From the NCBI GenBank assembly GCA_902765005.1, contig CACWYB010000004.1, forward strand, positions 95,179 to 159,178: a stretch of 64,000 nucleotides of DNA. The letters are read 5' to 3'. The DNA is from an uncultured Eubacteriales bacterium (GTDB taxonomy: Bacteria > Bacillota > Clostridia > Christensenellales > CAG-138). Shown here one piece after another: positions 1,231-62,423 of this stretch (positions are counted from its first letter, which is position 1; every line of letters begins with the position of its first letter). The notes below the pieces were generated by a model. That model searched no databases, was not told the DNA's origin, and worked only from the letters and a program-made list of their open reading frames with translations. A program made the translations under genes and the position numbers.

Positions 1231-1292
1231 CCTTTCTTTTCGCACCTTTTTCTTTTCCGTGAAAAGAAAAAGGTGCGTGAAAAAGAAAAGCA
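1231..1292. repeat. Solo unit of the CTTTTTCTTTTC/GAAAAGAAAAAG hairpin repeat family
   Basis: GCACCTTTTTCTTTTC-cgt-GAAAAGAAAAAGGTGC is nested inside complementary CCTTTCTTTTC ... GAAAAAGAAAAG flanks. It starts directly after stop 1228-1230. Confidence 0.85.
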
Positions 1293-2035: not shown

Positions 2036-2190
2036 CTGCCGCTTTTTCTTTTCGGTGAAAAGCAAAAGCGGCGGAAAAAGAAAAGCTTAGGAAGGGGGCT
2101 TGGGCTTCATTCCTATTCATATTATCTTTCCTGTGCTTCTCTTTTTTCGGTTCCTTTTTTCGCTTCACCGAAGAGAAAAAAGGAACAAAA
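2036..2190. repeat. Composite three-hairpin repeat (inside the cad operon)
   Basis: GCCGCTTTTTCTTTTC-ggt-GAAAAGCAAAAGCGGC, then GGAAAAAGAAAAGCTTAGGAAG...CTTTCCTGTGCTTCTCTTTTTT, then TTCCTTTTTTCGCTTC-acc-GAAGAGAAAAAAGGAA. Confidence 0.85.
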
Positions 2191-4102: not shown

Positions 4103-4241
4103 GATCCATTTTCTTGAAAGAAGAAGGACCAAAAAGACCTTTACCCATACGAAATCGCTCAGGAAGTCTAATGCATTCGTCTTCCTGAGCTTTTCTTTTT
4201 CCGCCGCTTTTTCTTTTCACCGAAAAGAAAAAGCGGCAAAA
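4103..4241. repeat. Composite three-hairpin repeat
   Basis: GATCCATTTTCTTGAAAGAAGAAGGACC, then a central hairpin GCTCAGGAAGtc..GTCTTCCTGAGC followed by CTTTTCTTTTT, then GCCGCTTTTTCTTTTC-acc-GAAAAGAAAAAGCGGC. Confidence 0.9.
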
Positions 4242-4854: not shown

Positions 4855-4977
4855 CCTATTTTGTTCTTCCCCATACCACGGGCTTCGGCTCCCGTGGTAT
4901 ATATTTTATGTTTGCAATTGAGGGGCCGTAACGCTATACTGATACTGCATCACCTGATATATCGGAAAGGAACCCAC

Positions 4978-6753
4978 ATGAATCCAAGACATCCCGGAAA
5001 ACAAAGCGTGCGGCTGCTGGCGGCCCTGCTTTCCCTCATCCTGCTGGCGGGCAGCGCCTTTGGGCCGGCCCGGACCCGGGCTGACCAGGGCCCTGACCCC
5101 ACCGCGGCTCCCGCTACGCCCACACCCGCCCCCATCCAGGGCGGAGAGGATGTGATCCTGGGCGGTCGGGACGCCACGGGCTATCAGGGCGTCATCGCCA
5201 CGGGCCGGGCCGAGTGCACGGAGATCGGCCTCAACATCCTGAAAAACGGCGGCAACGCTGTGGACGCGGCGGTGGCCGTGGGCTTCGCTTTGGGCGTGTG
5301 CGAGCAGCAATCCTCCGGCATCGGCGGCGGCGGGTTCATGACGCTGCGCCTGGCGGACACGGGGGAGGTCGTCTTCATCGATTTTCGGGACCGGTCCGCA
5401 GCCGCTGCTTCCCTGGACATGTGGACCGTCAACCCGGACGGCTCCGTGGCCAACGAAGAGAATAAGATCGGCGGCAAGGCCGTGGCGGTCCCCGGGGAGG
5501 TGAAGGGCCTGCTCTATGCCCTGGAGCGATACGGCACCATGAGCAGGGAGGAGGCCATGGCCCCGGCCATAAAGATGGCGGAGGAGGGCTTCACCGTGTC
5601 CCACATCACCAGCCGGGACATCAAGGACGCCTACCGGGCCATCATCCGGTACGACAGCACCTCCGAAATCTACCTGGACGAGGACCTGATGCCCTTCGAG
5701 GCGGGGGACATCATCCGGAATCCCGATTTGGCGGCCACCTTGCGCCTCATCGCCGAGAAGGGGGAGGAGGTCTTTTACCGGGGCGAGATCGCCGAGAAGA
5801 TCGTCGCCACCGTCCAGGCCGACGGGGGCTGCCTCACCCTGGAGGACTTTGCCAACTACGACATCCACGTGACCGAGCCCGTTCACGGAACCTATCGGGG
5901 CTACGACATCTACAGCTCCAACCTGCCCAGCTCCGGCGGCACCATCATCATCGAGATGCTGAACATCCTGGAAAACTTCGACGTGGCCGCCCTGGATATG
6001 GAGAGCCCGGAATACTTCCACCTGCTTTCCGAGGTCATGAAGCTCTGCTATGCCGACCGGGCCAAGTATATGGGCGACCCGGAGTATGTGGAGGTGCCCG
6101 TGGCGGGCCTGGTCGACAAAGCCTATGCCCAGGGGCTGGCGGACAAGATCGACCTGAAAAATTCCCAAACCTATGGGGCCGGGGACCCCTGGCCCTTTGA
6201 GTCCGATTCCACCACCAGCTATTCCATCCTTGACGCGGCGGGAAACATGGTGGCCGTGACCAAGACAGTGGACGCCACCTTCGCTTCGGCCCTGGTGGCG
6301 GAGGGCACGGGCATCCTGCTCAACGACACCCTCTTCGACTTTTCCACTGACCCCAGCAGCCCCAACGTGGTGGCGGGGAACAAGCGTCCCTTGAGCTCCA
6401 TGAGCCCCACCTTGGTCACGAAGGACGATCAGCCCTTCCTGGCCCTGGGCGCCCCCGGCTCCACCCGGATCATCAGCGGTGTGTTCCAGGTCATCACCAA
6501 GGTCATCGACCACGGCCTGGATGTGCAGGACGCCATCGACGCCGTCCGCATGCACGACGACTTCGGCACGCTGATCCTGGAGCGCCGGGTCAGCGACGAG
6601 ACCATAGACACCCTGCGGCAGATGGGCCATGAGATGAACGTGAGCGAGGTATGGTTCACCTTTCCCTGCGTGCAGGCGGTCCAGCGCCTGCCGGACGGCA
6701 CCCTGCGGGGCGCGGCGGACCCGCGGCGGGACGGCCAGGCGGCGGCCTATTGA
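4978..6753 (+). CDS. ggt: Gamma-glutamyltransferase family protein, Sec-type signal peptide
   Basis: Start set at ATG 4978 (MNPRHPGKQSVRLLAALLSLILLAGSAFG). GGT blocks seen: GGNAVDAAVA and SGIGGGGFM. The nucleophile Thr lies in DSTTSYSILD. At the oxyanion position it reads GAPGS where its paralog reads GSPGG. Confidence 0.85.
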   Translation: MNPRHPGKQSVRLLAALLSLILLAGSAFGPARTRADQGPDPTAAPATPTPAPIQGGEDVILGGRDATGYQGVIATGRAECTEIGLNILKNGGNAVDAAVAVGFALGVCEQQSSGIGGGGFMTLRLADTGEVVFIDFRDRSAAAASLDMWTVNPDGSVANEENKIGGKAVAVPGEVKGLLYALERYGTMSREEAMAPAIKMAEEGFTVSHITSRDIKDAYRAIIRYDSTSEIYLDEDLMPFEAGDIIRNPDLAATLRLIAEKGEEVFYRGEIAEKIVATVQADGGCLTLEDFANYDIHVTEPVHGTYRGYDIYSSNLPSSGGTIIIEMLNILENFDVAALDMESPEYFHLLSEVMKLCYADRAKYMGDPEYVEVPVAGLVDKAYAQGLADKIDLKNSQTYGAGDPWPFESDSTTSYSILDAAGNMVAVTKTVDATFASALVAEGTGILLNDTLFDFSTDPSSPNVVAGNKRPLSSMSPTLVTKDDQPFLALGAPGSTRIISGVFQVITKVIDHGLDVQDAIDAVRMHDDFGTLILERRVSDETIDTLRQMGHEMNVSEVWFTFPCVQAVQRLPDGTLRGAADPRRDGQAAAY

Positions 6754-6794: not shown

Positions 6795-7247
6795 ATGAAG
6801 ACCGGCGAAGAGCATTTTCAGGATTATTTGGACTCTCTGGAGAAGAAGCACATGCAGGATCTGGGCCTGTCCCTTATGGCCTCGGCCTATTCCAACTATG
6901 CCCCGGCCCAGGCCATCCTGGGGCGCTACCACCTGCTGGGGGAGGTCTTTCCCCGGGATCTGCCCGATGCCCTAAAGTGGCTGGAGAAGGCCGTGGCGCA
7001 GGACTACGCCCCGGCCATGACCACCCTGGCCGCCATGTATATGTTCGGCGACGGGGTGAAGGTCAACGGCAAGAAGGCGGTGGAGCTGCTCACCCGGGCC
7101 ATCGAGCTGGGGGACGGGGAAGCCCTGTTCGTGCGGGGCGTGTGCAGCGAGAAGGGCATCGGCGTCAGCAAGGACCCGCAGGACGCCAAAGCTTGGTACG
7201 AGAAGGCCGCCCAGAAGGGCATTACCGAGAGCGCCCTTATGGCGTGA
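6795..7247 (+). CDS. Sel1-like repeat (SLR/TPR) protein
   Basis: ATG 6795 follows AAGGAGAAAAAC. It carries repeated A..WLEKAA.QGY..A / AKAWYEKAAQKG Sel1 motifs and has no signal peptide. Confidence 0.7.
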   Translation: MKTGEEHFQDYLDSLEKKHMQDLGLSLMASAYSNYAPAQAILGRYHLLGEVFPRDLPDALKWLEKAVAQDYAPAMTTLAAMYMFGDGVKVNGKKAVELLTRAIELGDGEALFVRGVCSEKGIGVSKDPQDAKAWYEKAAQKGITESALMA

Positions 7248-10184: not shown

Positions 10185-12032
10185 ATGAGCAAAAAGGACA
10201 TTTCCCGCCGTTCGTTCCTGAAGGGAACCGCGGCAGCCGGCGCCTCTTTGGCGGCGGCCTCCCTGTTGCCCCGGATCACCATGGCTGAGGATGAGCCGAC
10301 TTCCGAATTCAAGTGGGAGCGCGGCGTCTTCACCGATGAGGAGACGGGCTGGCAGCTGTGCGACCTGGAGACCGGTGAGCTGAATCTGGAAGGCCGTGGC
10401 GCCAACGGCGCCAACGCGGCGGTGGCCGCGGGCACGCCCTGGGCAGCCAAGGCTGGTCTGGACGTCCTGAAGAAGGGCGGCAACGCGGTGGATGCGGCGG
10501 CGGCCGTGGCCTTTGCCATTTCCGTCACCGAGCCCCAGGCCTCCGGTATCGGCGGCGGCGGCTTCATGACCATGCGCGCGGCGGACGGCACCATCAACTT
10601 CATCAACTTCCGTGAGTGCGCTCCTGAACTCTGCGACCAGAGCTTCTGGCCCGTTGTACAGGATCCCGAGACCGGCCGCTACAGCGTGGTCGGCGGCGCC
10701 AACGGCAAGGGCGGCCGTGCCATCGGCGTGCCCGGCACCGTAGCCGGCATGGCTTATGCCGTGGAGAAGTTCGGTTCTCTGCCTCTGGCTGATGCGGTCC
10801 AGCCCGCCATCGACCTGTGCGAGAACGGCTTCTACATTGGGCCCACCACCGGTGTTTCTCTGGAATCCGCCTACACCAACATCGTGGCTTATCCCGAGTT
10901 CGCCTCCATCTACACCCTCCCCGAAGAGGCTGCGGATGAGCTGGGCCGGTTCACCTACTTCACCGGCGACCTGTTCAAGAACACCCAGCAGGCCAAGGCC
11001 CTCAAGCTCATCCAGGAGCAGGGCCGCGACGGCTTCTACAAGGGCGAGCTGCAGGATGCCATGATCAAGGCTTCCAACAAGTACGGCGGCGTCTTCCAGC
11101 CCAAGGACTTCGAGGAGTATGAGGCCGACCTGCGGGAGCCCGTCCAGGGCACCTTCATGGGCAAGACTGTCATCTCCAGCCCCCTGCCCTCCTCCGGCGG
11201 CACCTGCATCATCCAGCTGCTCAACGTGCTGGAGGCCTTCGGTGTGGATAAGCTGAAGGAGTATGGCCACAACAGCGTGGAGTACATCCATGTTCTGTCC
11301 GAAGCCATGAAGCTGGTCTATTCCGACCGCTCCAAGTACCTGGCCGCCAACACCGAGGATGCCTTGGTAAAGGCCCTCATGGACAAGGAGTATGCCAAGT
11401 ACCTGGCCTCCCTCATCAAGATGGACAGCTGCCTCACCCCCGAGGCCCACGATCCCTTCCAGTATGAGCACCAGGATACCACCTCCTTCGCCGTGGCGGA
11501 TAAGGATGGCAACATCGTTTGCGTCACCTTCACCATCAACGGCTACTTCGGCAGCTACGTTGCCCCCGATGGCTACGGCTTCCTGCTGAACAACGAGATG
11601 GCTGACTACGACAGCAACCCCAACAGCCCCAATGCCATCGGCAAGGCCAAGTATCCTCTGTCCTCCATGAGCCCCACCATCGTGCTCAACGAGGATGGCA
11701 GCCCCTTCCTGGCCATCGGTTCCCCCGGTGGTGCCACCATCATCGTCGCCGTGCTCCAGATCATCCTGGACACCGTGCTGTTCGGTATGGATATGCAGGA
11801 AGCCGTTGAGCAGCCCCGTATCGCGGACAACGCTTCCGCCAACCTCCGCTATGAGACCCGTATTCCTCAGGAGACCATCGACGCGCTGGTCGCCCTGGGC
11901 CACAAGGTCACTCCCTACAGCGGCGATTGGGATCGCAGCTCCGGCTCCTGCCAGGGCGTCCTTTACGCTGCTGATGGCACGCTCCATGGCGGCGCCGATC
12001 CTCGTCGTGACAACAAGGCCTTTGCCTTCTAA
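10185..12032 (+). CDS. ggt: Gamma-glutamyltransferase family protein with twin-arginine signal peptide
   Basis: The N-terminus MSKKDISRRSFLKGTAAAGASLAAASLL..TMA matches S-R-R-x-F-L-K. GGT blocks seen: GGNAVDAAAA, SGIGGGGFM, nucleophile Thr in QDTTSFAVADKDGN, and GSPGGATII. Confidence 0.9.
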   Translation: MSKKDISRRSFLKGTAAAGASLAAASLLPRITMAEDEPTSEFKWERGVFTDEETGWQLCDLETGELNLEGRGANGANAAVAAGTPWAAKAGLDVLKKGGNAVDAAAAVAFAISVTEPQASGIGGGGFMTMRAADGTINFINFRECAPELCDQSFWPVVQDPETGRYSVVGGANGKGGRAIGVPGTVAGMAYAVEKFGSLPLADAVQPAIDLCENGFYIGPTTGVSLESAYTNIVAYPEFASIYTLPEEAADELGRFTYFTGDLFKNTQQAKALKLIQEQGRDGFYKGELQDAMIKASNKYGGVFQPKDFEEYEADLREPVQGTFMGKTVISSPLPSSGGTCIIQLLNVLEAFGVDKLKEYGHNSVEYIHVLSEAMKLVYSDRSKYLAANTEDALVKALMDKEYAKYLASLIKMDSCLTPEAHDPFQYEHQDTTSFAVADKDGNIVCVTFTINGYFGSYVAPDGYGFLLNNEMADYDSNPNSPNAIGKAKYPLSSMSPTIVLNEDGSPFLAIGSPGGATIIVAVLQIILDTVLFGMDMQEAVEQPRIADNASANLRYETRIPQETIDALVALGHKVTPYSGDWDRSSGSCQGVLYAADGTLHGGADPRRDNKAFAF

Positions 12033-30004: not shown

Positions 30005-30019
30005 AGGAATGTATTGAAA

Positions 30020-30165
30020 GCCCGATCCTTTTTCTTGAAAGAAAAAGGACCAAAAAGAACTTTAGGAAGATAAAAGGCAAACGAACATAGCAAGGCATTC
30101 TTCCTAAGCTTTTCTTTTTCCGCCGCTTTTTCTTTTCACCGAAAAGAAAAAGCGGCAAAGAAAAA
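30020..30165. repeat. Composite three-hairpin repeat (archetype copy)
   Basis: GATCCTTTTTCTTGAAAGAAAAAGGACC, CAAAAAGAAC, a TTTAGGAAG..CTTCCTAAG hairpin, CTTTTCTTTTT, then GCCGCTTTTTCTTTTC-acc-GAAAAGAAAAAGCGGC. Confidence 0.9.
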
Positions 30166-37254: not shown

Positions 37255-40200
37255 ATGAAAAAGCAACTGTGTCTCTTCATAGCCCTCGTCATGGTTGCGG
37301 GGCTCATATCGTTCCCGGTCAGCACCTTCGCCCAGGATGACCCCGTGCGGGTCCTGCTGAGCACGGAGGGACGGGATGTTTTGACCTTGACCCTTTCCGG
37401 CACCTATACCGCCAACGGCGTCACCCTCACCGGCGGTACATTGACGGTGGCCGTGTCCGGCATGGACGTGGTGGCGACCCACGATCAGCAAGGAGAGCTG
37501 TTCACCGGGGAACGCTTCACCCTGTCCGCCGCCGCGGAAGCCGGGGAGGACGCCTGCTTCACCCTGGCCACGGCCGGGGCCAAGGAGCGTCAATACAAGG
37601 GCGACGTGACCTTCGATGTGTCCGCCGGCGCCGTGCGGGCGGTGAACACCGTGGGCATGGAGGCCTATATCGCCGGGGTGGCCGTGCCCGAGGTGGGCAA
37701 GAACGCCGCCGAAGCCCTGCTCAAGGCGGCCATGGTGGCGGCCAAGGGCTATGCCCTGGCGGAGATGGGCGTCAGCGGCAGCAAGGCCTATGACGTGGAC
37801 GATACCTCCGCCGATCAGGTCTACAACGGCTATTTCCCCACGGCGGATCGGGTCAACGCCTGCGCCGCGGAGGTGGCGGGGGAGACCCTGCTCTACAACG
37901 GCCAGCCCATCAAGACCCACTACGGCTCCAGCAACGGCGGTGTCATCCTGACACCCAAGGCCAAGTGGGGCGGCGGCCAGGCCTATTCCGGCGCCTACGA
38001 GTGCAAGTTCGATCCCTTTGACATCACCCGCACCGAGGTGGTGAACCTGATGATCCCCGTCACGGGGAACGCCCCTGAGACCCTGCCCGAGAAGCTCTAT
38101 GAATACCTGCTGTCCAAGGCCGGCGGCGACGCCATTTTGGCCATCGACGCCCTGGAAGGCTACTGCAGCAAGAGCGACGCGCCCGCGGGCTACGCGCCCC
38201 AGGATGGCTTCACCGCCACGCTCCAGGTGCGCCGGGGGGCTTCCGCCGCCACGGAAACGGTGCAGGTGACCTTCGACGAGCTGTCCAAGAACAAGATCGT
38301 CCTGAGCGACAACAGCGTCCGCTTCGCCACCCAGGTGAGCAGCGGCAGCTGGCTCCTCTGCTGGGGCCAGAGCAAGGGCTCCCGGGTGGGCCTGTCCCAG
38401 AAGGGGGCGGCCCGCATGGCGGATCTGGGCTACAGCTATGCGGACATCCTCAAGTTCTACTATCCCAACGCCGTCCTGACCCGCAGCGACGGGACCGTGG
38501 TCCCTTCCCAGGCTGACCTTTCCACCGCCGCCGTCATGCAGAAGCTGCAGAGCGCGGGGAATCGGAGCATCACGACCACCGGCTATGTGAACGCCGAGAA
38601 CGTGCAGCTCATGAGCAAGGCCTCCTCCAGCGCGGATGTGTGCGCCCGGCCCACCACGCTCAGCCGCTTTGGCATCTATCAGAAGCAGGGGGATTGGTAC
38701 TTCGGCATCGACCTTACCACCGGCGTTCAGGGCTGGGTCCACAAGAGCCAGCTCACCGAGGGCGAGCCTCCCGCCGACCTGCCCACCCCCACCAGCACCC
38801 CCAGCCCCTATGTGAACCTGTCCAGCAGCGTTCTCCACGCCCCGGAGGATCAGCCTGACGACACCGTCATCGGCACCGTCAACACCGACGGCGTGAACGT
38901 TCGTCAGGAGCCCTCCAAGGACAGCGAGAAGCTGGCCCAGTGCAACAAAGACGACCAGGTCTACATCTTCCACCGCACCGGAGACTACTACTACGTGCAG
39001 CTCCCCGGCACGGAGATCAAGGGGTATATCCTGACCAAGTATGTGGACACGGAGAACGAGCAGGATATCCCCGAGGTCACCCCCGAGCCTACGGAGGAGC
39101 CCACGCCGACCCCCACCGAGGAGCCCACGCCGACCCCCACGGAGGAGCCTACGCCAACCCCCACGGAGGAGCCTACGCCGACTCCCACGGAGGAGCCTAC
39201 GCCGACTCCCACGGAGGAGCCCACGCCGACCCCCACGGAGGAGCCCACGCCGACCCCCACGGAGGAGCCCACACCGACCCCCACGGAGGAGCCTACGCCG
39301 GCCCCCACGGAGGAGCCTACGCCGACTCCCACGGAGGAGCCTACACCGACCCCCACCGAGGAGCCCACGCCGACCCCCACGGAGGAGCCCACGCCGACCC
39401 CCACGGAGGAGCCTACGCCGACCCCCACGGAGGAGCCTACGTCGGCCCCCACGGAGGAGCCTACGTCGGCCCCCACGGAGGAGCCTACGCCGACCCCCAC
39501 CGAGGAGCCCACGCCGACCCCCACGGAGGAGCCCACGCCGGCCCCCACGGAGGAGCCTACGCCGACCCCCACGGAAGAGCCTACGCCGGCCCCCACGGAG
39601 GAGCCCACGCCGGAGCCCACGGAAGAGCCTACCCCCGAACCCACCCCTGTCCCCACGGACACTCCGTCGCCCGCGCCTACGGACACCCCGTCGCCCACGC
39701 CCAGCGGTCCGCCCAAGGAGCCCACCCAGGAGATGATCGACAAGGCCGTGAAGGGCAAGCTCATCAAGAGCGGCGTCAACATGCGGGAAGGCCCCAGCAC
39801 CAGCTATAATCTGGTGGACAGCGGGCTAAAGAGCGGCACCGTGGTCACGGTCTACGGGTCCTACGGGTCCTTCTACTTCCTCCGGGTGGACAGCACCAAG
39901 AAGTATGGCTACATCTCCAAGCAGTTCATCCGGCTGGATACGGACGACGACGATGACGACGAGCCCGAGCCCACCAAAAAGGCCACGGCGGAGCCGGCCA
40001 TCCGGCTGAGCCAGGGCGATGTGAACGGGGACGGCCTGGTTTCCGCCGCGGACGCGGCCCTGGTCATCCGCTATGACGCCGGCCGCATCGATCTAAGCGA
40101 CGCCCAGCTCAAGGCCGCCGACATGGACGGGGACGATCAGGTCACCACCATGGACGCCAAGGCCATCCTGCGCTACGTGGCCAGCCGCATGATCCGGTAA
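37255..40200 (+). CDS. Secreted SpoIID/LytB-domain protein with SH3-like domains, long PT-rich repeat linker and C-terminal dockerin
   Basis: Signal peptide [26 protein letters not shown]. SpoIID block seen ([34 protein letters not shown]). SH3b-like segments flank about 23 EEPTPTPT units. The C-terminus carries [20 protein letters not shown]...[19 protein letters not shown]. Confidence 0.8.
39088..39640 (+). repeat. 24-nt in-frame tandem repeat (EEPTPTPT), about 23 copies
   Basis: GAGGAGCC(C/T)ACGCCGAC(C/T)CCCAC(G/C) is reiterated head to tail. Variants PAPT, SAPT and PEPT are present. Confidence 0.95.
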
Positions 40201-40348: not shown

Positions 40349-42080
40349 ATGGAAATCAGAAACGTTGCGATCATCGCCCATGTTGACCATGGCAAAACCA
40401 CCCTGGTGGATCATCTGCTGCAGGACGCCGGCGTGCTGCGCCGCAGCGAGGTGGGCGTGGATCGAGTTATGGACAGCGGCGATCTGGAGCGGGAGCGGGG
40501 CATCACCATCCTCTCCAAGAACACCGCCGTCAGCTACGGGGACGTGCGCATCAACATCGTGGACACCCCGGGCCACGCCGATTTCGGCGGCGAGGTGGAG
40601 CGCATATTGCAGATGGTGGACGGCGTGCTCCTGCTGGTGGACGCCTTTGAGGGCTGCATGCCCCAGACCCGCTTCGTGCTGAAAAAGGCCCTGGAGCTGG
40701 GGAAGGTGCCCGTGGTGGTCATCAACAAGGTGGATCGCAGCGACGCCCGCCCCGACGAGGTGGTGGACGAGACCTTGGAGCTGTTCATCGAGCTGGGCGC
40801 CACCGCCGAGCAGCTGGATTTCCCCATCGTCTATGCCTCCGCCCGCAACGGCATGTCCGGATATGAGGTGGACCGGCTGGAGCACAGCATGAAGCCCATC
40901 TTTGACACCATCCTCAAGTACATCCCCGCCCCGTCCATGGACGACACGGCGCCGCTACAGATCCTCTTCTCCACCATCGACTACGATGATTACGTGGGCA
41001 AGATCGGCGTGGGCCGCATCGAGCGGGGAATCGCCCGCCGGGCCCAGAGCATCGTTCTCTGCGGCGGCGAAAACAACAAGGTCCGCCCCGCCAAGATCAC
41101 CCGGCTCTATCGCTTCGAGGGCCTGCACCGGGTGGAGGTGGAGGAGGTCCATGCCGGCGACATCGTCTGCATGGCCGGCGCCGATGATCTGAACGTGGGC
41201 GAGACCGCCTGCGATCCAAACTGCGTGGAGCCCATGCCCTTCGTGCACATCGATGAGCCCACGGTGAGCATGCTCTTCAAGGTGAACGACAGCCCCTTCG
41301 CCGGCAAGGAAGGCCGGTATGTGACCAGCCGCAACATCCGGGAGCGGCTCTTCAAGGAGGTCAAGACCAACGTGTCCATGCGGGTGGAGGAGACCGAGTC
41401 CACCGACACCTTCAAGGTCAGCGGCCGGGGCGAGCTGCATCTGTCCATCGCCCATGGAGGAGCTGACGGTGGACGTGCCCACGGAGTTCATGGGCCCGGT
41501 CATGGAGAAGCTGGGCGCCCGCAAGGGCGAGATGACGGACATGACCGCCATCGGGGACCTGAGCACCCGGGTGAAGTTCCTCATTCCCGCCCGCGGCCTG
41601 ATGGGCTATCGGAGCGAGCTTCTGACCGACACCAAGGGCAACGGCGTCATGAGCCATATCTTCGCCGGGTACGACACCTACAAGGGGCCCATCGAGAGCC
41701 GCAGCAGCGGCAGCCTGGTGGCCCACGAGACCGGGGACACCAGCAGCTATGGCCTGTTCTATGCCCAGGACCGTGGCCGGCTCTTCGTTGGCCCGGGGAT
41801 CCCGGTGTATGAGGGGCAGATCGTGGGCGAGAACGCCCGGGACGAGGACATCGTGGTGAACGTGTGCAAGAAGAAGCACGTGACCAACATGCGGGCCGCC
41901 GGGTCCGACGAAGCGCTGCGCCTCACGCCGCCGGTGATCTTCACCCTGGAGCAGTGTTTGGAGTTCATCGCCGACGACGAACTGGTGGAGGTCACGCCCA
42001 AGAGCATCCGCATGCGTAAAAAGATCCTCTCCAAGGAGCAGCGCATGAAGCTGGCGGCCCGGGGGATCAAGGATTTTTGA
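40349..42080 (+). pseudogene. typA: typA/bipA translational GTPase interrupted by an internal deletion plus frameshift (or assembly error)
   Basis: From 40349 to about 41450 the sequence is clear TypA ([28 protein letters not shown] ... GRGELHLSI). Homology resumes in another frame at 41454 (EELTVDVPTEFMGPVMEKLGARKGEM ... DDELVEVTP) and runs to 42080. About 30 residues normally lying between these blocks are missing. Confidence 0.75.
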
Positions 42081-42096: not shown

Positions 42097-42245
42097 GCAC
42101 CTTTTTTCTCTTTAGTAAAGAGAAAAAAGGTGCCCAAAAAAGAGAAACGCAGGAAGGGAGCGGCTTTACTCGCCGGTCCCTCTTTTGTTTTCCTGGCTTT
42201 TCTTTTTGCGCCGCTTTTTCTTTTCGCCCGAAAAGAAAAAGCGGC
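42097..42245. repeat. Composite repeat, mixed module types
   Basis: GCACCTTTTTTCTCTTTAgTAAAGAGAAAAAAGGTGC, CCAAAAAAGAGAAAC, a degenerate central segment, CTTTTCTTTTT, then GCCGCTTTTTCTTTTC-gccc-GAAAAGAAAAAGCGGC. Confidence 0.85.
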
Positions 42246-42301
42246 ATAAAAGAAGCCCCAAAGAGCCATCCTAACTCCATTCCATGGAAGGAGGTTTTCA
42301 A

Positions 42302-42466
42302 ATGGAAAAGAAACAGACCATCGGCTGCGACGTGACCAGCTGCGCCTACAACCACCAGGGCCAGCGATGCGACCTGGATCACATCGAGGTCAGCAGCCGC
42401 TGCCAGGACTGCGGCCGGGAAAACGAGAGCCTGTGCGCGTCCTACCGCTGCGAAACCGAAAGATGA
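42302..42466 (+). CDS. DUF1540-like small Cys-rich protein
   Basis: ATG 42302 follows GGAAGGAGG. It reads MEKKQTIGCDVTSCAYNHQGQRCDLDHIEVS... Confidence 0.65.
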   Translation: MEKKQTIGCDVTSCAYNHQGQRCDLDHIEVSSRCQDCGRENESLCASYRCETER

Positions 42467-42488
42467 ATACCTGCCCCGCATAGGGGCC

Positions 42489-42520
42489 GGCGCCTCTTCC
42501 TGGAAAGGGGCGCCTTTTTT
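42489..42520 (+). terminator. Rho-independent terminator
   Basis: GGCGCCtcTTCC-tg-GAAAggGGCGCC followed by T6. Confidence 0.75.
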
Positions 42521-52935: not shown

Positions 52936-52956
52936 CAGAGGAAGCATGGAAAGCCC

Positions 52957-53095
52957 GCAGCTTTTCTTGAAAGAAAAGCTGCCTAAAAGAACTTTCAGAA
53001 GGGGATGAGGCTTGCGGACCATCCCAGGCATCCCCTTCTGACTTTTCTTTTTCGGTTCCTTTTTCTTTTCTTCCGAAAAGAAAAAGGAACAAAAA
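52957..53095. repeat. Composite three-hairpin repeat
   Basis: GCAGCTTTTCTTGAAAGAAAAGCTGC, AAAAGAAC, TCAGAAGGGGATG..CATCCCCTTCTGA, CTTTTCTTTTT, then GTTCCTTTTTCTTTTC-ttcc-GAAAAGAAAAAGGAAC. Confidence 0.9.
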
Positions 53096-53124: not shown

Positions 53125-54213
53125 GTGGACGCAGATCCCAGTAGCATTCCCATACGGCTGCAGCTGAACGAATCCGTTCCGGAGGCGGCGGGGCGCAGCC
53201 CCGCAGGCCTTATTCTGTTCTTTTTGGCGCTGCTTCTCTTCAGCGCTTTCTTTGCCGGCAGCGAAACGGCCCTGTCTACCGTGAACCGCATCCGCATGAT
53301 GAGCTATGCGGACGACGGGGATCGGCGGGCCCGCCGGGTCATCTATATCCTGGACCACTTCGAGGAAGCCCTGTCGGCCATCCTCATCGGCAACAACATC
53401 ATGCACATCGGCAGCGCGGCTCTGGCCACGCTGACAGCCACCCGCCTGTGGGGCGAAGGAGCCGTGGCGGCCACCACCGTGGTGACGGCCCTTTTGGTGT
53501 TCCTGGCGGCGGAGATGATCCCCAAATCCTTCGCCAAGGCCTGCTCCGAGCGGTTCGCCCTCTTCTGCGCCACGCCTCTGCTGCTGCTCATGAAGGTGCT
53601 CAAGCCCTTCATCCACCTGTTCACCGGCGTGAGCCGGGCCCTCAAGCGCCTGGCCCGCATCCCGGAGGAGGAGGACCCCACGGTCACCGAGGACGAGCTC
53701 CACGACATCATCGACTCCATCATCCCCGATGAGGAAAACGGCGTGGACGAGGACACCGCCGAGCTGGTCCAAAGCGCGCTGGAATTCACCGAGACCCCGG
53801 TCCGGGACGTGTTCACCCCCTGGAAGGAGGTCACCGTCATCCGCCGGGACATGTCCCCCAAGGCGATCGTGGCCCTCATCGAGGGCACCATCCATTCCCG
53901 CCTGCCTGTGGTAGACGGGGAGGGGAACGTGGTGGGCATGCTCCAGATCCGAAAATACCTGAAATCCTACATCCAGCGCCAGGGCCATGTGTCTTTGAGC
54001 CGGGTTATGGATAAGCCCACCTTCGTCTCCGCAGGCGCCCCCATCGACGAGCTGCTGGACACCCTGTCGAGCCAGCGGGTCCACATCGCCATCGTCCGGG
54101 ACGCGGACGAAAAGCCCCTGGGCATCATCACCGTGGAGGACATTTTGGAGGAACTGGTGGGCGAGATCTACGACGAGGACGACAGCACACCCCCGGGAGG
54201 TGGCGAGCTATGA
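53125..54213 (+). CDS. CNNM/DUF21 plus CBS-pair membrane protein (no CorC_HlyC domain)
   Basis: GTG 53125 lies 7 nt after GAGGTGG. It has FFAGSETALS..., LIGNN, and a CBS pair. Confidence 0.75.
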   Translation: MDADPSSIPIRLQLNESVPEAAGRSPAGLILFFLALLLFSAFFAGSETALSTVNRIRMMSYADDGDRRARRVIYILDHFEEALSAILIGNNIMHIGSAALATLTATRLWGEGAVAATTVVTALLVFLAAEMIPKSFAKACSERFALFCATPLLLLMKVLKPFIHLFTGVSRALKRLARIPEEEDPTVTEDELHDIIDSIIPDEENGVDEDTAELVQSALEFTETPVRDVFTPWKEVTVIRRDMSPKAIVALIEGTIHSRLPVVDGEGNVVGMLQIRKYLKSYIQRQGHVSLSRVMDKPTFVSAGAPIDELLDTLSSQRVHIAIVRDADEKPLGIITVEDILEELVGEIYDEDDSTPPGGGEL

Positions 54214-57997: not shown

Positions 57998-58133
57998 GCG
58001 ACTTTTTCTCTTTATACAAAGGAGAAAAAGTCGCCCAAAAAGAGAAACTTAAGAAGAGGTACAGCTTTCGCACAGAAAGAAACACCTCTTCTTAACGTTC
58101 TTTTGAGCCCCTTTTCTTTCAAGAAAAGGGGCT
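57998..58133. repeat. Composite repeat in inverted orientation
   Basis: GCGACTTTTTCTCTTTAtacAAAGGAGAAAAAGTCGC, CCAAAAAGAGAAAC, TTAAGAAGAGGT..ACCTCTTCTTAA, then AGCCCCTTTTCTTTCAAGAAAAGGGGCT (the reverse complement of the CTTGAAAG hairpin type). Confidence 0.9.
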
Positions 58134-61121: not shown

Positions 61122-62423
61122 ATGAAGAAACTGTGCATCCTGACCTGCCTGCTCCTGCTGCTCCTTGCCTGCGGGCAAAGGACGGCGGAGGACCCAATCG
61201 CATACATTCCCGCTGACGCCACCGCCATGGCGGGCGCCACCGCCGCCGCTGAAACGCTGGCCCCGGCCCCCACCGCCGCGCCCCTGTTCACTCCGGCGCC
61301 CACAACGGAACCCACTCCCGAGCCCACCCCCACGCCGGAGCCCACGCCGGAGCCTACGCCCACCCCCGTGCCTCTGGAGGTGCTGGTCAGCCAATACGTG
61401 GCCGGCATGACGGACCGGGAGAAGATCGGCCAGCTGGTCATGTTCGGCTTCTCGGGCACCAAGACCGTGTCCACGGAGTTCGCTAAGATCATGGAGGACT
61501 ACGCCGTGGGCAACGTGATCCTCTACGGCACCAACATCCTTCGGGACAACGGCGACGGAGGCTTCGACCGCTGCGCCCAGCTCACCGCGGACATCCGGGC
61601 CCATAACGCCACAAGCATCCCGCTCCTCATCAGCACGGACGTGGAGGGGGGCAACGTGACCCGCTTCCGCTGGCGGAACAAGACCCTTTCCGCGGAGGCC
61701 CTGGGCGAAGCGGACGACCCGGATGCCGCCCGGCTCCAGTTCGAGCGCATCGCCACCGCCCTCTACGACGTGGGCATCAACACGGATCTGGCCCCCGTGC
61801 TGGACGTGGCCGCCGCCCCCCACAAGACCTTTTTAGGCCGCCGCATCATCAGCAGCGATGAGCAGATCGCCGCCCGCATCGGCATCGCCTCCATGGAGGG
61901 CCTGCAAAACGGCGGGTGCCTGTCCATTGTCAAGCATTTTCCCGGCCACGGGGCCACCTCCGCCGACTCCCATAACGTGACTCCCGTGGTGAAAAAGAGC
62001 CTGGAGGCCCTGCAGGATTACGAGCTCTTCCCCTTTGAAAAGGCCGTGGCCGCCGGGGTGGATGGGGTCATGGTGGCCCACATCTTCTATCCTCAGGTCG
62101 ACCCGGACTATATCGCCTCCCAAAGCCGCCTCTTCATCACGGAGATCCTCCGGGAACAGATGGGCTTTGCCGGGGTGGTGGTGGCGGACGACTTCCGCAT
62201 GAACGGCCTTCGCTCCAAGGCCAGCCTGGAAACGGCGGCGGTCCGGTTCATCCTGGCGGGGGGCGATATCATCATCTGCGGCGCCAACCACAGCTACCAG
62301 CGGTCCATCCTCAAGGGCCTCACCAGCGCCGTGGCCGACGGCACCATTTCCCAGGATCGGCTGAACGAAAGCGTGGTCCGCATCCTTCTGGCCAAGATGA
62401 AGGTTACGGACTGGGCCCCCTGA
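61122..62423 (+). CDS. Glycoside hydrolase family 3 N-terminal-domain lipoprotein (NagZ-like beta-N-acetylhexosaminidase)
   Basis: Lipobox LLLLACG, a [21 protein letters not shown] linker, then GQLVMFGF, STDVEGG and KHFPGHG. Confidence 0.8.
   Translation: MKKLCILTCLLLLLLACGQRTAEDPIAYIPADATAMAGATAAAETLAPAPTAAPLFTPAPTTEPTPEPTPTPEPTPEPTPTPVPLEVLVSQYVAGMTDREKIGQLVMFGFSGTKTVSTEFAKIMEDYAVGNVILYGTNILRDNGDGGFDRCAQLTADIRAHNATSIPLLISTDVEGGNVTRFRWRNKTLSAEALGEADDPDAARLQFERIATALYDVGINTDLAPVLDVAAAPHKTFLGRRIISSDEQIAARIGIASMEGLQNGGCLSIVKHFPGHGATSADSHNVTPVVKKSLEALQDYELFPFEKAVAAGVDGVMVAHIFYPQVDPDYIASQSRLFITEILREQMGFAGVVVADDFRMNGLRSKASLETAAVRFILAGGDIIICGANHSYQRSILKGLTSAVADGTISQDRLNESVVRILLAKMKVTDWAP

Follow-up and report, generated by a model that had tools for sequence, protein, structure and literature searches.

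The intergenic locus at 30020-30165 of the window, by which we mean the whole stretch of 64,000 nucleotides analyzed here, folds into three hairpins (-51.7 kcal/mol, z = -5.96; 0 of 200 shuffles equal), as the first-pass annotation had proposed. The annotation had listed eight such repeat loci. All of them lie where it placed them and all are intergenic (Table 1). The elements are modular and A/T-rich, with a GC content of 0.33-0.46 compared with 0.62 in the window. Allowing at most one mismatch, CTTTTTCTTTTC matches 20 times in the window, whereas 0.11 matches are expected from shuffles, and repeat finding retrieves the families (D3, D4, D5, D7, D8, D17). Every copy in the window starts 0-21 nt after a stop codon, in agreement with the earlier description, and the elements touch the stop codon once the conserved outer flank (A)GGAA..ATTGAAAGC is included. 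The element, abundant but so far unannotated, occupies about a third of the longer intergenic regions here.

The copies vary in composition. The annotated mixture of module types at 42097 consists of hairpin C on the left and hairpin B on the right, and the copy at 1231 is indeed a solo hairpin B, with tracts alongside. The locus at 23884-24285 is a tandem array of a 178-nt unit in about 2.25 copies. The copy at 57998 is inverted, as described, but it is not the only one: 2036-2190 is 'inverted' too and contributes a fourth module type. The locus 2 element lies inside an operon (copZ-copA) and ends 13 nt before the start codon of the P-type ATPase gene, and the gene after locus 7 starts at 53125.

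Table 1. Parts of the eight repeat loci, in window coordinates.
Feature	Coordinates	Strand	Details
Locus 1, outer tract, T-rich CCTTTCTTTTC	1231..1241	+	imperfect (9/11) match to Hoogsteen-type strand
Locus 1, solo hairpin B	1241..1277	.	CGCACC-TTTTTCTTTTC-cgt-GAAAAGAAAAA-GGTGCG, 17 bp
Locus 1, purine third-strand tract GAAAAAGAAAAG	1279..1290	+	12/12 mirror of arm GAAAAGAAAAAG
Locus 2, left module	2038..2085	+	hairpin B, one mismatch (2038-2072); mirror tract GAAAAAGAAAAG (2074-2085)
Locus 2, central domain, variable	2086..2135	.	50 nt
Locus 2, right module	2136..2186	+	pyrimidine third-strand tract CTTCTCTTTTTT (2136-2147), 12/12 parallel match to arm GAAGAGAAAAAA; hairpin C' (2149-2186)
Locus 3, left module	4103..4137	+	degenerate hairpin A (4103-4130); tract AAAAAGA (4131-4137)
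Locus 3, central hairpin	4157..4190	.	GCTCAGGAAG...CTTCCTGAGC
Locus 3, right module	4190..4237	+	CTTTTCTTTTTCC (4190-4202); hairpin B (4203-4237)
Locus 4, array start, truncated hybrid hairpin	23888..23915	.	
Locus 4, array copy 1	23959..24093	+	hairpin A (23959-23986); tract AAAAAGAA (23987-23994); central hairpin (24013-24046); CTTTTCTTTTG (24046-24056); degenerate hairpin B (24058-24093)
Locus 4, array copy 2	24137..24271	+	hairpin A (24137-24164); tract AAAAAGAA (24165-24172); central hairpin (24191-24224); CTTTTCTTTTTG (24224-24235); hairpin B (24237-24271)
Locus 5 (the flagged locus), conserved outer flank ATTGAAAGCCC	30013..30023	+	
Locus 5, left module	30024..30059	+	hairpin A (30024-30051); tract AAAAAGAA (30052-30059), 8/8 mirror of arm AAGAAAAA
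Locus 5, central hairpin, variable	30060..30108	.	CTTTAGGAAG...CTTCCTAAG, 49 nt
Locus 5, right module	30109..30156	+	pyrimidine tract CTTTTCTTTTTC(C) (30109-30121), doubling as T tract of the central hairpin; third-strand tract CTTTTCTTTTTC is a 12/12 parallel match to GAAAAGAAAAAG; hairpin B (30122-30156)
Locus 6, left module	42097..42147	+	hairpin C (42097-42133); tract AAAAAAGAGAAA (42136-42147), 12/12 mirror of arm AAAGAGAAAAAA
Locus 6, central hairpin	42148..42196	.	49 nt
Locus 6, right module	42197..42245	+	CTTTTCTTTTT (42197-42207); hairpin B (42210-42245)
Locus 7, left module	52957..52991	+	hairpin A variant GCAGCTTTTCTT/AAGAAAAGCTGC (52957-52982); tract AAAAGAA (52985-52991)
Locus 7, central hairpin	52995..53041	.	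TCAGAAGGGGATG...CATCCCCTTCTGA
Locus 7, right module	53042..53090	+	CTTTTCTTTTTC (53042-53053); hairpin B, foot GTTCC/GGAAC (53054-53090)
Locus 8, left module	57998..58047	+	hairpin C, one T.G pair (57998-58034); tract AAAAAGAGAAA (58037-58047)
Locus 8, central hairpin	58048..58095	.	CTTAAGAAGAGGT...ACCTCTTCTTAA
Locus 8, right module	58097..58133	+	GTTCTTTTG (58097-58105); hairpin A variant (58106-58133)

A full element consists of a module, an R' tract, a variable central hairpin (47-52 nt), an H tract and a second module. Each module contains a homopyrimidine 5' arm, a loop and an A-rich homopurine 3' arm, closed by a covarying G+C foot, and is accompanied by a third tract. On one strand the third tract is the mirror of the purine arm (Y-R-R', 'class II'), and on the opposite strand it is a parallel pyrimidine copy (H-Y-R, 'class IV'); it is neither a direct copy of the purine arm nor its Watson-Crick complement. 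For example, GAAAAGAAAAAG goes together with the mirror AAAAAGAAAAG, and the other strand carries CTTTTCTTTTTC. All eight window loci, and at least 181 modules elsewhere, have a Y arm, an R arm and a third tract. The first-pass annotation, whose description lacks the mirror relation, had two Y tracts competing for one R tract by Watson-Crick pairing. We found that the extra tract is the poorer partner in such pairing, and that the mirror relation wins.

Among the 248 hairpin sides with a flanking tract in the matches listed, the mirror score exceeded the direct-copy score at 188, compared with 27 for the reverse. We obtained the same result with 148 unique modules from the matches listed (63 distinct arms), a set unselected by the search pattern: mirror prevailed over direct 122 to 6, with 20 ties (sign test p 3e-29), and when tracts were permuted among hairpins, the observed score was reached in none of 1000 permutations. 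Mirror matches extend up to 14 nt and include complex G patterns, such as GAAAGGAAAGAGAAG with AAGAGAAAGGAAAG. In mixed elements the tract follows the adjoining hairpin and not the partner across the center, as seen at 42097, and at locus 7 both the hairpin A arm and its tract have A4 instead of A5. At the level of sequence, these comparisons show that the mirror rule for a third strand in the major groove holds and is under selection. Because the third tract is the exact Hoogsteen-type mirror partner of the adjoining arm and changes with it over 63 types, the architecture corresponds to an intrastrand triple-helix motif: three consecutive homopurine/homopyrimidine blocks, of which blocks 1 and 2 are antiparallel Watson-Crick partners and the third is the mirror or parallel copy. 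We infer that the modules adopt a triple-helix fold.

Potential triples (T/U.A-T/U and C+.G-C) form runs of 7-14, mostly 11-12, a length that lies within the 6-15-nt stem limit used in ITxF searches, which also allow loops of 1-6 nt (PMC4666352). Among the matches listed, 45 of 48 pairs have their tracts on the inner side, facing the center of the element, and 86 of 102 solo modules have a tract on one side only. The connection made by foot and free linker is short and regular: a 4-bp foot with a free linker of 1 nt was found 81 times and a 5-bp foot with a 2-nt linker 42 times among the matches listed, and footless modules have a free linker of 3-11 nt. The second connection spans 5-9 nt with the foot counted as loop and 0-3 nt with the foot paired. 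Perfect hairpins (at least 9 bp) outnumber imperfect ones 427 to 13 among the matches listed; with just 13 imperfect hairpins, the polarity of G.U versus A.C mismatches has no power to separate RNA-level from DNA-level selection.

In line with the earlier proposal, the G+C feet covary: 27 aligned elements show compensatory changes, with 2, 6 and 6 double changes in columns 6-8/38-40 and 3 and 4 in the foot of hairpin A. The central stems are different in each copy yet still fold (mean z -3.5). The suggestion that structure rather than sequence is conserved holds for the feet and the central hairpin, but not for the flanking modules, in which the sequence is conserved too. A T tract lies directly 3' of the folding central domain, and the element can be read as a terminator on either strand in that a hairpin is followed by a T tract both ways, but not as one that is strong everywhere. 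The central hairpin with CTTTTCTTTTT or GTTCTTTT is terminator-like by position; its loops are large, its base is A/U-rich, and the consensus terminator scan did not call the central hairpins. In several copies, the 13-30 nt between the element and the next start codon hold no more than a ribosome-binding site, so termination there cannot be efficient, and some copies lie within operons. Canonical G+C-rich terminators occur elsewhere in the window, one of them directly after the solo module at 1231.

Outside the window, copies occur in at least 108 genome stretches and at least 120 metagenome stretches, and the comparison among carrier genomes was made on stretches of 8 kb. The family is widespread and previously undescribed, and it occurs at the ends of genes in uncultured Clostridia of gut and rumen. 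Among the matches listed, 43 lie between tandem genes, 30 between convergent and 4 between divergent ones, against 171, 64 and 49 background gaps, respectively; with metagenome loci added and clustered, the matches listed comprise 44 convergent, 49 tandem and 5 divergent loci. The median distance from stop codon to element is 23 nt among the matches listed, none of which lies convincingly inside coding sequence. The 13 apparent overlaps with genes affect only the ends of open reading frames, which were called from the most upstream start codon. The orientation of A/B pairs relative to genes shows a weak bias or none. Where the two genes are in tandem, the long B module takes the distal position in 31 cases versus 18 among the matches listed (one-sided p ~0.04), which places class IV on the sense strand more often, and solo modules show no orientation bias (12 vs 9, among the matches listed). 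Look-alike modules occur in archaea, in rRNA spacers and a tRNA intron; transcription of the two rRNA spacers would yield the purine (class II) version.

Comparison of orthologous sites, at which the flanking genes are 75-89% identical, reveals how the elements change. These sites retain an element whose center is unrecognizable, and the tract H and module B are nearly identical: a single linker base separates the right module at 4103 from its counterpart in the related genome L031. Against this background we observed a flip (2036 versus L031), module swaps (57998 versus L065 and 2036 versus L038), the tandem duplication of 178 nt at 23884 and, at 1231, a clean indel of 59 nt, the entire module being missing from the orthologous site in L031.

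The first-pass annotation did not recognize a described REP, BIME or MITE family here, but a related kind of repeat is known (PMC4666352). Rfam (release 15) gave no match in the window at the gathering threshold; the best permissive matches were generic hairpin and leader models at less than half the threshold, and none fell on modules in 18 other loci. A literature search with the tract sequences and for PIT elements returned no description of the family. Among known repeats, those most closely related to it are the intrastrand-triplex repeats that in E. coli and other Proteobacteria go by the names PIT, BoxC or TMECO (Hoyne/Maher 2000; Holder et al. 2015, PMC4666352). Like the present modules, these have three blocks on one strand, Y-loop-R-loop-R' (class II, with class IV on the other strand), lie in many copies exclusively between genes, show little preference for either strand, often occur as two inverted copies, combine highly conserved stems with variable loops, and differ in their loci between related genomes. 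By contrast, TMECO is G/C-rich (CCCTCNCCC/GGGNGAGGG), whereas the present family, being A/T-rich, suits the T.A-T type. Holder et al. took A/T-rich motifs as mostly due to chance (PMC4666352). The TMECO/BoxC consensus CCCTCNCCC-N3-6-GGGNGAGGG-N3-GGGNGAGGG does not occur in our modules, and their A/T-rich arms (CTTTTTCTTTTC and others) bear no resemblance to it. Because the TMECO arm is its own mirror, mirror covariation cannot show there and covariation is uninformative, whereas the present family offers at least 63 asymmetric covarying arm variants. The present modules further differ in bearing a G+C foot, in being paired around a terminator-like hairpin of fixed length, in hugging stop codons where TMECO more often lies upstream of genes, and in belonging to Clostridia, with look-alikes in archaea, rather than to Proteobacteria.

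Other known systems share parts of this design. REP/BIME sequences of Enterobacteria and Pseudomonas are likewise extragenic palindromic units that form high-copy mosaics at 3' ends and between operon genes in either orientation; REP/BIME units stabilize upstream mRNA against 3' exonucleases and cause weak termination. The present units differ in being homopurine/homopyrimidine with a third mirror tract, and their consensus has no GTAG-type head. As in H-DNA, R, a 5-8-nt spacer and R' form a perfect 7-14-nt mirror repeat, of the length (at least ~10 nt, with a short spacer) seen in GAAAAGAAAAAG-CGGCG-GAAAAAGAAAAG. H-DNA, however, needs no inverted repeat, whereas here the Watson-Crick partner lies on the same strand together with a loop and foot, an arrangement required for a single-strand fold. 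If the modules act as RNA, they would resemble the ENE elements of PAN, MALAT1 and transposon RNAs in their U.A-U-rich triples with isolated C+.G-C, about 10-12 in number, near 3' ends. ENEs clamp a 3' A tail in a U-rich internal loop; we found no such loop clamping a downstream A-rich tract, but H-Y-loop-R in one hairpin, and neither sequence nor Rfam relates the two. Bidirectional intrinsic terminators share the A tract and T tract around a central hairpin and the enrichment between convergent genes; they lack the two additional hairpins whose arms set the tract sequences, and many present copies lie inside operons, just before the next start codon. Both ends of an element are palindromes of related sequence, but, in contrast to MITEs, 28 elements showed no consistent target-site duplication.

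We tentatively favor a role of the elements as structured, partly terminating 3'-end punctuation in RNA. The elements would be mosaics of 'triplex modules', and with the order module-R'-center-H-module a polymerase coming from either side meets a hairpin, an A tract, a hairpin with a T/U tract and an H-Y-R module. In the transcript, the central hairpin and U tract would act as a weak to moderate bidirectional intrinsic terminator, and the distal H-Y-R module, predicted to be the only triplex class that forms in RNA, would fold as a U.A-U-rich triple helix, a very stable barrier to 3'-to-5' exonucleases and read-through. Transcript ends would be punctuated and stabilized, and the next gene would not always be silenced. 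Selection may keep the family uniform, in combination with frequent exchange between copies through recombination or gene conversion. A-rich arms with isolated G should favor the pyrimidine (T.A-T) motif, and pyrimidine-type triplexes form in RNA whereas purine-type ones do not (PMC4666352, its references 42 and 43). Counting against the RNA model, which in an RNA-only form predicts an orientation bias, are the weak bias of pairs and its absence in solos, as well as the class II strand transcribed in the archaeal rRNA spacers. In its favor, a linker of 1-3 nt over 4-6 bp suits the deep groove of A-form helices, a situation known from loop 1 of H-type pseudoknots, and class IV lies more often on the sense strand in tandem pairs. 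Against it, neither terminator nor promoter activity and no stable triplex in vivo were seen for the triplex repeat of E. coli (PMC4666352), and a functionless insertion under purifying selection would likewise end up enriched at 3' ends. A stronger proposal, which we consider possible but on balance unlikely, is that the elements form, where transcription units end, an RNA triple helix that occurs naturally and is widely conserved in prokaryotes, protects 3' ends and tunes read-through; its 5' U-rich strand would occupy the major groove of a U-A hairpin (H-Y-R, 11-12 triples). Such an element would be a bacterial, and possibly archaeal, counterpart of the eukaryotic and viral ENE/MALAT1 triple helices, backed by the first large-scale 'Hoogsteen covariation' in genomes.

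The modules could instead act in DNA, a rather unlikely reading that nevertheless deserves weight. Negative supercoiling behind RNA polymerase, the lagging-strand template or repair would open the duplex, and both strands would fold, as H-DNA or as an intrastrand triplex of the PIT/TMECO kind, with effects on supercoil absorption, polymerase stalling or recombination; PIT/TMECO has been tied to local genome instability. Near-random orientation to transcription, as in TMECO (PMC4666352), fits this, and each locus inherently presents both classes, II and IV, on opposite strands, in A/T-rich islands of a 0.62-GC genome that are visibly unstable between related genomes. However, short inverted repeats rarely extrude when the complementary strand is present, and for TMECO the duplex form prevailed in vitro and in vivo footprinting gave no triplex (PMC4666352). 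H-DNA requires a mirror repeat only, not a hairpin with a covarying foot; a 1-3-nt linker probably cannot span a 4-6-bp foot in B-form DNA; and stop-codon adjacency with orthologous retention fits a role in the transcript better.

We regard it as improbable that the elements are selfish non-autonomous mobile repeats (REP/BIME- or MITE-like), whose hairpin and tract would be the recognition structure of a putative single-stranded DNA transposase or recombinase encoded elsewhere, and whose gene-end location would reflect only where insertions are tolerated. The many copies, the near-identical modules across many genomes, the presence/absence polymorphism of the solo module, both orientations at one site, mosaic module combinations, tandem arrays and depletion from divergent (promoter) regions are all as expected of such repeats, and BIMEs show the same kind of mosaic and gene-end location. 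Against this, the first-pass annotation saw no transposase or RAYT gene in the window, the 16 flanking genes that we scanned are all ordinary, with no RAYT among them, no target-site duplication was consistent across the elements, and no known transposase reads an 11-12-nt Hoogsteen relation. No match occurred among 2.9 million viral contigs scanned, so the element is not phage-borne. Moreover, modules remain nearly identical where flanking genes have diverged by 11-25%; near-identical modules beside a decayed center are unlike inert insertions, unless gene conversion is constant. Far less probable still are ordinary bidirectional intrinsic terminators, the extra tracts being merely their A and T tracts, or double-stranded DNA protein-binding or uptake sites, with the mirror as incidental low complexity. 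In favor of these readings, A tract, central hairpin and T tract follow one another as in the classic bidirectional terminator, convergent gene pairs are enriched, and the uptake sequences of other bacteria are often inverted pairs in terminators. Yet mirror over direct at 122:6 across 63 arm types, the permutations that never match and the covariation all speak against these readings: an A/T tract would need no G/C positions of the neighboring hairpin, the flanking hairpins have no T tract after them, and a mirror copy is ruled out as a third half-site, since the surface that it offers in duplex DNA is a different one.

In vitro, triple helices are familiar, but evidence for their selective maintenance in prokaryotic genomes is thin; in the one studied bacterial family, PIT/BoxC/TMECO, the arms are their own mirrors and comparative analysis is silent. 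The present family supplies dozens of naturally occurring 'compensatory' variants with coordinated changes in all three strands, the type of evidence that established RNA secondary structures. It offers a cheap test system for whether bacteria use triple helices for transcript ends and stability or for DNA shape, and is relevant to calling genes, predicting operons and assembling genomes of uncultured Clostridia from gut and rumen.

Two further candidates within the elements were considered. A small peptide behind the RBS-like GAGGAAG followed by ATG/ATT in the hairpin A flank was rejected: the frame relative to the hairpin differs between 30020 and 23884 and the starts are unconserved. A promoter within the element is not supported: for TTGAAA (in the hairpin A flank and loop) and ATAAT (in the center), we saw no partner hexamer at the right spacing. 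The promoter-like matches of the scan fall in the linker between the array copies.

Beside each Y-loop-R hairpin (a pyrimidine arm, a loop and a purine arm, with a G+C foot closing the stem) lies a third tract that reads as the purine arm backwards, being neither a repeat of that arm nor its complement, a relation that the first-pass annotation had overlooked. A third strand in the major groove of a Y-R duplex requires a mirror repeat of the homopurine tract: a purine third strand runs antiparallel and forms A.A-T and G.G-C triples, and on the complementary strand a pyrimidine third strand runs parallel and forms T.A-T and C+.G-C. The tract CTTTTCTTTTTC of the flagged copy (30109-30120) matches GAAAAGAAAAAG (30141-30152) in parallel at 12 of 12 positions and is imperfect as its Watson-Crick partner.

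A first sample covered 248 hairpin sides flanked by a tract; the mirror match was the better in 188 and the direct match in 27. In the full sample, 427 perfect hairpins among the matches listed yielded 148 unique modules of non-B types, with 63 distinct purine arms in all; the hairpin B search pattern had not selected these types in the matched loci. Among these listed matches the mirror match was the better in 122 modules and the direct match in 6, 20 being tied (sign test, 3e-29), or 49 versus 4 counted per distinct arm. When tracts were reassigned to other hairpins, the observed match was reached in 0 of 1000 permutations. The longest mirror matches extend to 14 nt with irregular G patterns, and at 42097, where module types are mixed, each tract matches its adjoining hairpin and not the tract pairable across the centre. 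Of 48 hairpin pairs, 45 carry their tracts on the inner side and only three show outer-side tracts; of 102 solo modules, 86 have a tract on one side only. Replication-based processes yield direct or inverted repeats and are not known to yield mirror repeats; we therefore read the mirror rule as reflecting selection for a three-stranded fold. This putatively selected triple-helix architecture is the family's defining feature.

Twenty-seven B-to-A elements from 20 genomes were alignable end to end. A T-rich lead is followed by a foot, CTTTTTCTTTTC, a loop, GAAAAGAAAAAG, the opposing foot, 1-2 nt and AAAAAGAAAAG; then come the central domain, GTTCTTTTGG, a foot, CCTTTTCTT-TC-AAGAAAAGG, its foot and the flank GCTTTCAAT. 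The hairpin feet covary. The central domain measures 47-52 nt in 27 of 27 elements and combines a semi-conserved outer stem (CTTAAGAAG/CTTCTTAAG) with an apical stem that is unlike in every copy, even in orthologues, its pairing retained (mean z -3.5). The flanking hairpins are spaced by 73 nt (5-95%: 70-80). The predicted triplex segment spans 7-14 nt, mostly 11-12, and is connected to its third strand by a foot of 4-6 bp and 0-3 free nt or, in footless cases, by a free linker of 3-11 nt. An unpaired ATAAT/ATAAA block recurs in the central domain (30060-30108 in the flagged copy, columns 55-107 of the alignment) ~11-15 nt past the purine tract in many genomes.

In the window, CTTTTTCTTTTC is matched with at most one mismatch 20 times (0.11 expected), and 15 of these matches lie inside the eight loci, facing each other as hairpins (seven pairs and one extra in an array). 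Repeat finding clusters the copies together, all perfect pyrimidine/purine hairpins of the window fall within the eight loci, and for the flagged copy (30013-30165) folding gives three hairpins (z = -5.96), as it does for all copies on both strands. The eight-locus repeat of the first-pass annotation is thus real, and its placement after stop codons is upheld, the loci being intergenic and 0-21 nt past a stop codon. Because the outer flank beside hairpin A is conserved, the elements effectively abut that codon. They form A/T-rich islands, with a G+C of 0.33-0.46 versus 0.56-0.68 across the window.

A wider search had also been proposed, and scans with the hairpin B pattern retrieved at least 108 stretches from genomes and at least 120 additional ones from metagenomes; viral contigs scanned for the same pattern gave 0 matches. 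The genome matches listed come mostly from uncultured rumen/gut 'Clostridiales', Oscillospiraceae, Christensenellales and Angelakisella. Parts of the window share synteny, at 75-89% identity, with four related genomes. Elements are kept at orthologous sites, yet swapped, flipped or, for the solo module, absent (see table), and imperfect hairpins are rare (13 versus 427 perfect among the matches listed), so the sites are persistently occupied. The modules are near-invariant through selection, conversion between copies, or both, and the element loci are recombinationally active.

Module types, element loci and related features (window coordinates unless a stretch from another genome, L, is named)
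Feature	Position	Description
B module		purine arm GAAAAGAAAAAG; adjacent tract, one side: (G)AAAAAGAAAAG; opposite strand: CTTTTCTTTTT(C)
A module		purine arm AAGAAAAA; adjacent tract AAAAAGAA
A module, A4 variant	52957	purine arm AAGAAAA; adjacent tract AAAAGAA
C module		purine arm AAAGAGAAAAAA; adjacent tract AAAAAAGAGAAA
C' module		purine arm GAAGAGAAAAAA; adjacent tract CTTCTCTTTTTT
Hairpin A outer flank	30005-30023, 52936-52956, 23869-23887; also L stretches	(A)GAGGAAG-N3-5-ATTGAAAGC(CC); looks like ribosome-binding site plus start codon; reading frame downstream not conserved
Solo module	1231	L031: clean absence of 59 nt directly after TAA
Element B..C'	2036	L031: flipped, C'..B; L038: left module different
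Element	4103	L031: same element; H+B module differs by one linker base; compensatory changes in hairpin A; centre unrelated
Element	23884	tandem duplication within the window
Element C..A	57998	L065: A..B
Archaeal three-tract motif	L095 712-763; L077 1023-1067; L067 7026-7065, 7141-7190; L068 ~66-117	
Module clusters	L047 1-200, 2444-2781, 5802-6136	at least three modules of differing types per few hundred bases

Arms in the L047 clusters, from a Clostridia genome of 0.51 GC, include GAAAGGAAAGAGAAG, GAAAAGAAAGAAAAG and GAAAAGAAAAAG, and every arm has a mirror tract of its own; hairpins GATCCGACGGAT..ATCCGTCGG are interleaved, and a tRNA gene is nearby. In Oscillospiraceae S33_Bin3 and Angelakisella (L027 ~7040-7200, L042, L083, L097, L102), a B-type module with the foot CTT/AAG sits inside a longer dispersed repeat, between a G+C-rich hairpin, CTGGGGC..GCCCCAG, and CGGCCAAAGTATTTACA...AAAATCTGCGCAATTTGG. 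This is a different composite around the same B module, and it had no match in Rfam.

Crude gene calls from third-position G+C placed 77 elements among the matches listed, 43 in tandem, 30 in convergent and 4 in divergent gaps (background 171/64/49); with metagenome loci added and near-duplicates clustered, the listed matches gave 49, 44 and 5. They are therefore 3'-end elements, which are not always strong terminators. At 2036-2190, an HMA-domain (CopZ-like) gene and a P-type ATPase gene flank the element, an ArsR-family gene lies upstream, and 13 nt separate the element's end from the ATPase start. Element 52957-53095 ends 30 nt ahead of the next start codon, the sole signal seen in the gap being an RBS-like GAGGTGG, and in several other genomes the distance is 22-25 nt. 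A consensus terminator scan did not call the central hairpins; canonical G+C-rich terminators occur in the window too, one of them 27 nt past solo module 1231.

What the sequences establish is the three-strand rule, the placement, the turnover and the hairpins; the mechanism given here is inferred. The element is symmetric, so each direction of transcription ends in an H-Y-R module (pyrimidine third tract), after the hairpin and U-tract. Going by pseudoknot geometry, a 1-3-nt linker across a 4-6-bp foot would fit into the deep groove of A-form duplexes. RNA can form triplexes of the pyrimidine motif but not of the purine type (PMC4666352). The pyrimidine motif is the one that the A-rich arms, with their isolated G, would suit. 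On these grounds we favour a role in the transcript, where the element would cause partial bidirectional termination and the H-Y-R triple helix could block exonucleases and read-through, a net effect that may be likened to that of REP/BIME elements.

The case for RNA over DNA is weak, and a role in DNA, like that proposed for the E. coli repeats, is a live alternative. In tandem gene pairs among the matches listed the long B module is distal in 31 versus 18, solo modules show no orientation bias relative to genes, and G.U wobble polarity could be read on the 13 imperfect hairpins only. A selfish element served by some putative enzyme is likewise a live candidate. Target-site duplications were sought at the elements and none was found, and a MITE was rejected, no consistent duplication appearing in 28 elements.

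Catalogues of intrastrand triplex motifs are available from Hoyne/Maher and Holder et al. (PMC4666352). PIT/BoxC/TMECO of E. coli resembles the present family in its Y-R-R' order, intergenic location, lack of strand bias, frequent inverted pairs and variable loci (PMC4666352); we rejected identity because the sequences differ. Unlike TMECO, the present family is A/T-rich in a G+C-rich genome, has asymmetric, covarying arms and a paired foot, joins a terminator-like hairpin in a composite of fixed geometry, is tightly tied to stop codons and differs in host range. Holder et al. regard A/T-rich motifs as mostly chance (PMC4666352). The resemblance to BIMEs is only loose. The Rfam comparison suggested earlier found no family for the repeat, nor did a literature text search for element sequences find a description. 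The family is real, abundant and undescribed, of an intrastrand triplex kind that is itself known but poorly understood, and is of high interest for nucleic-acid structure and for annotating gut and rumen Clostridia.

The arrangement CTTTTTCTTTTC-loop-GAAAAGAAAAAG, a 7-11-nt linker and AAAAAGAAAAG also occurs in archaeal genomes labelled Altiarchaeales, Micrarchaeota and one unclassified. The L095 copy sits in the 16S-tRNA(Ala)-23S spacer, 9 nt past the tRNA, and the L077 copy within an apparent intron in the spacer tRNA's T-loop. L067 has the motif beside tRNA-Thr, together with a second variant (GAAAGAAAAG and AAAAGAAAG) that follows the mirror rule too. A similar linker, TGYTTCASCCC, is common to L067, L068 and L095. 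These rRNA-spacer and tRNA sites are certainly transcribed, and the sense strand in L095 and L077 carries the purine (class II) version.

Elsewhere in the window, typA/bipA is split into two overlapping frames (40349-41812, GTP_EFTU domains; 41454-42080, EFG_C and BipA_C) by a frameshift, pseudogene formation or a sequence error. Between element 42097-42245 and a RecF/SMC-like gene sit an unlisted small Cys-rich ORF (42301-42474; 57 aa, MEKKQTIGCDVTSCAYNHQGQRCD...), which has a good ribosome-binding site, and, after it, a canonical terminator (42489-42514). About 30 units of a 24-nt tandem repeat (38953-39792) encode a Pro/Thr/Glu-rich linker in a 981-aa SpoIID/SH3/dockerin protein (37255-40200), and a shorter similar stretch lies in another gene (61287-61370). 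Two paralogous genes of ~620 aa each (4861-6753 and 10185-12032) share stretches that are 78% identical (5227-5358 versus 10455-10586).
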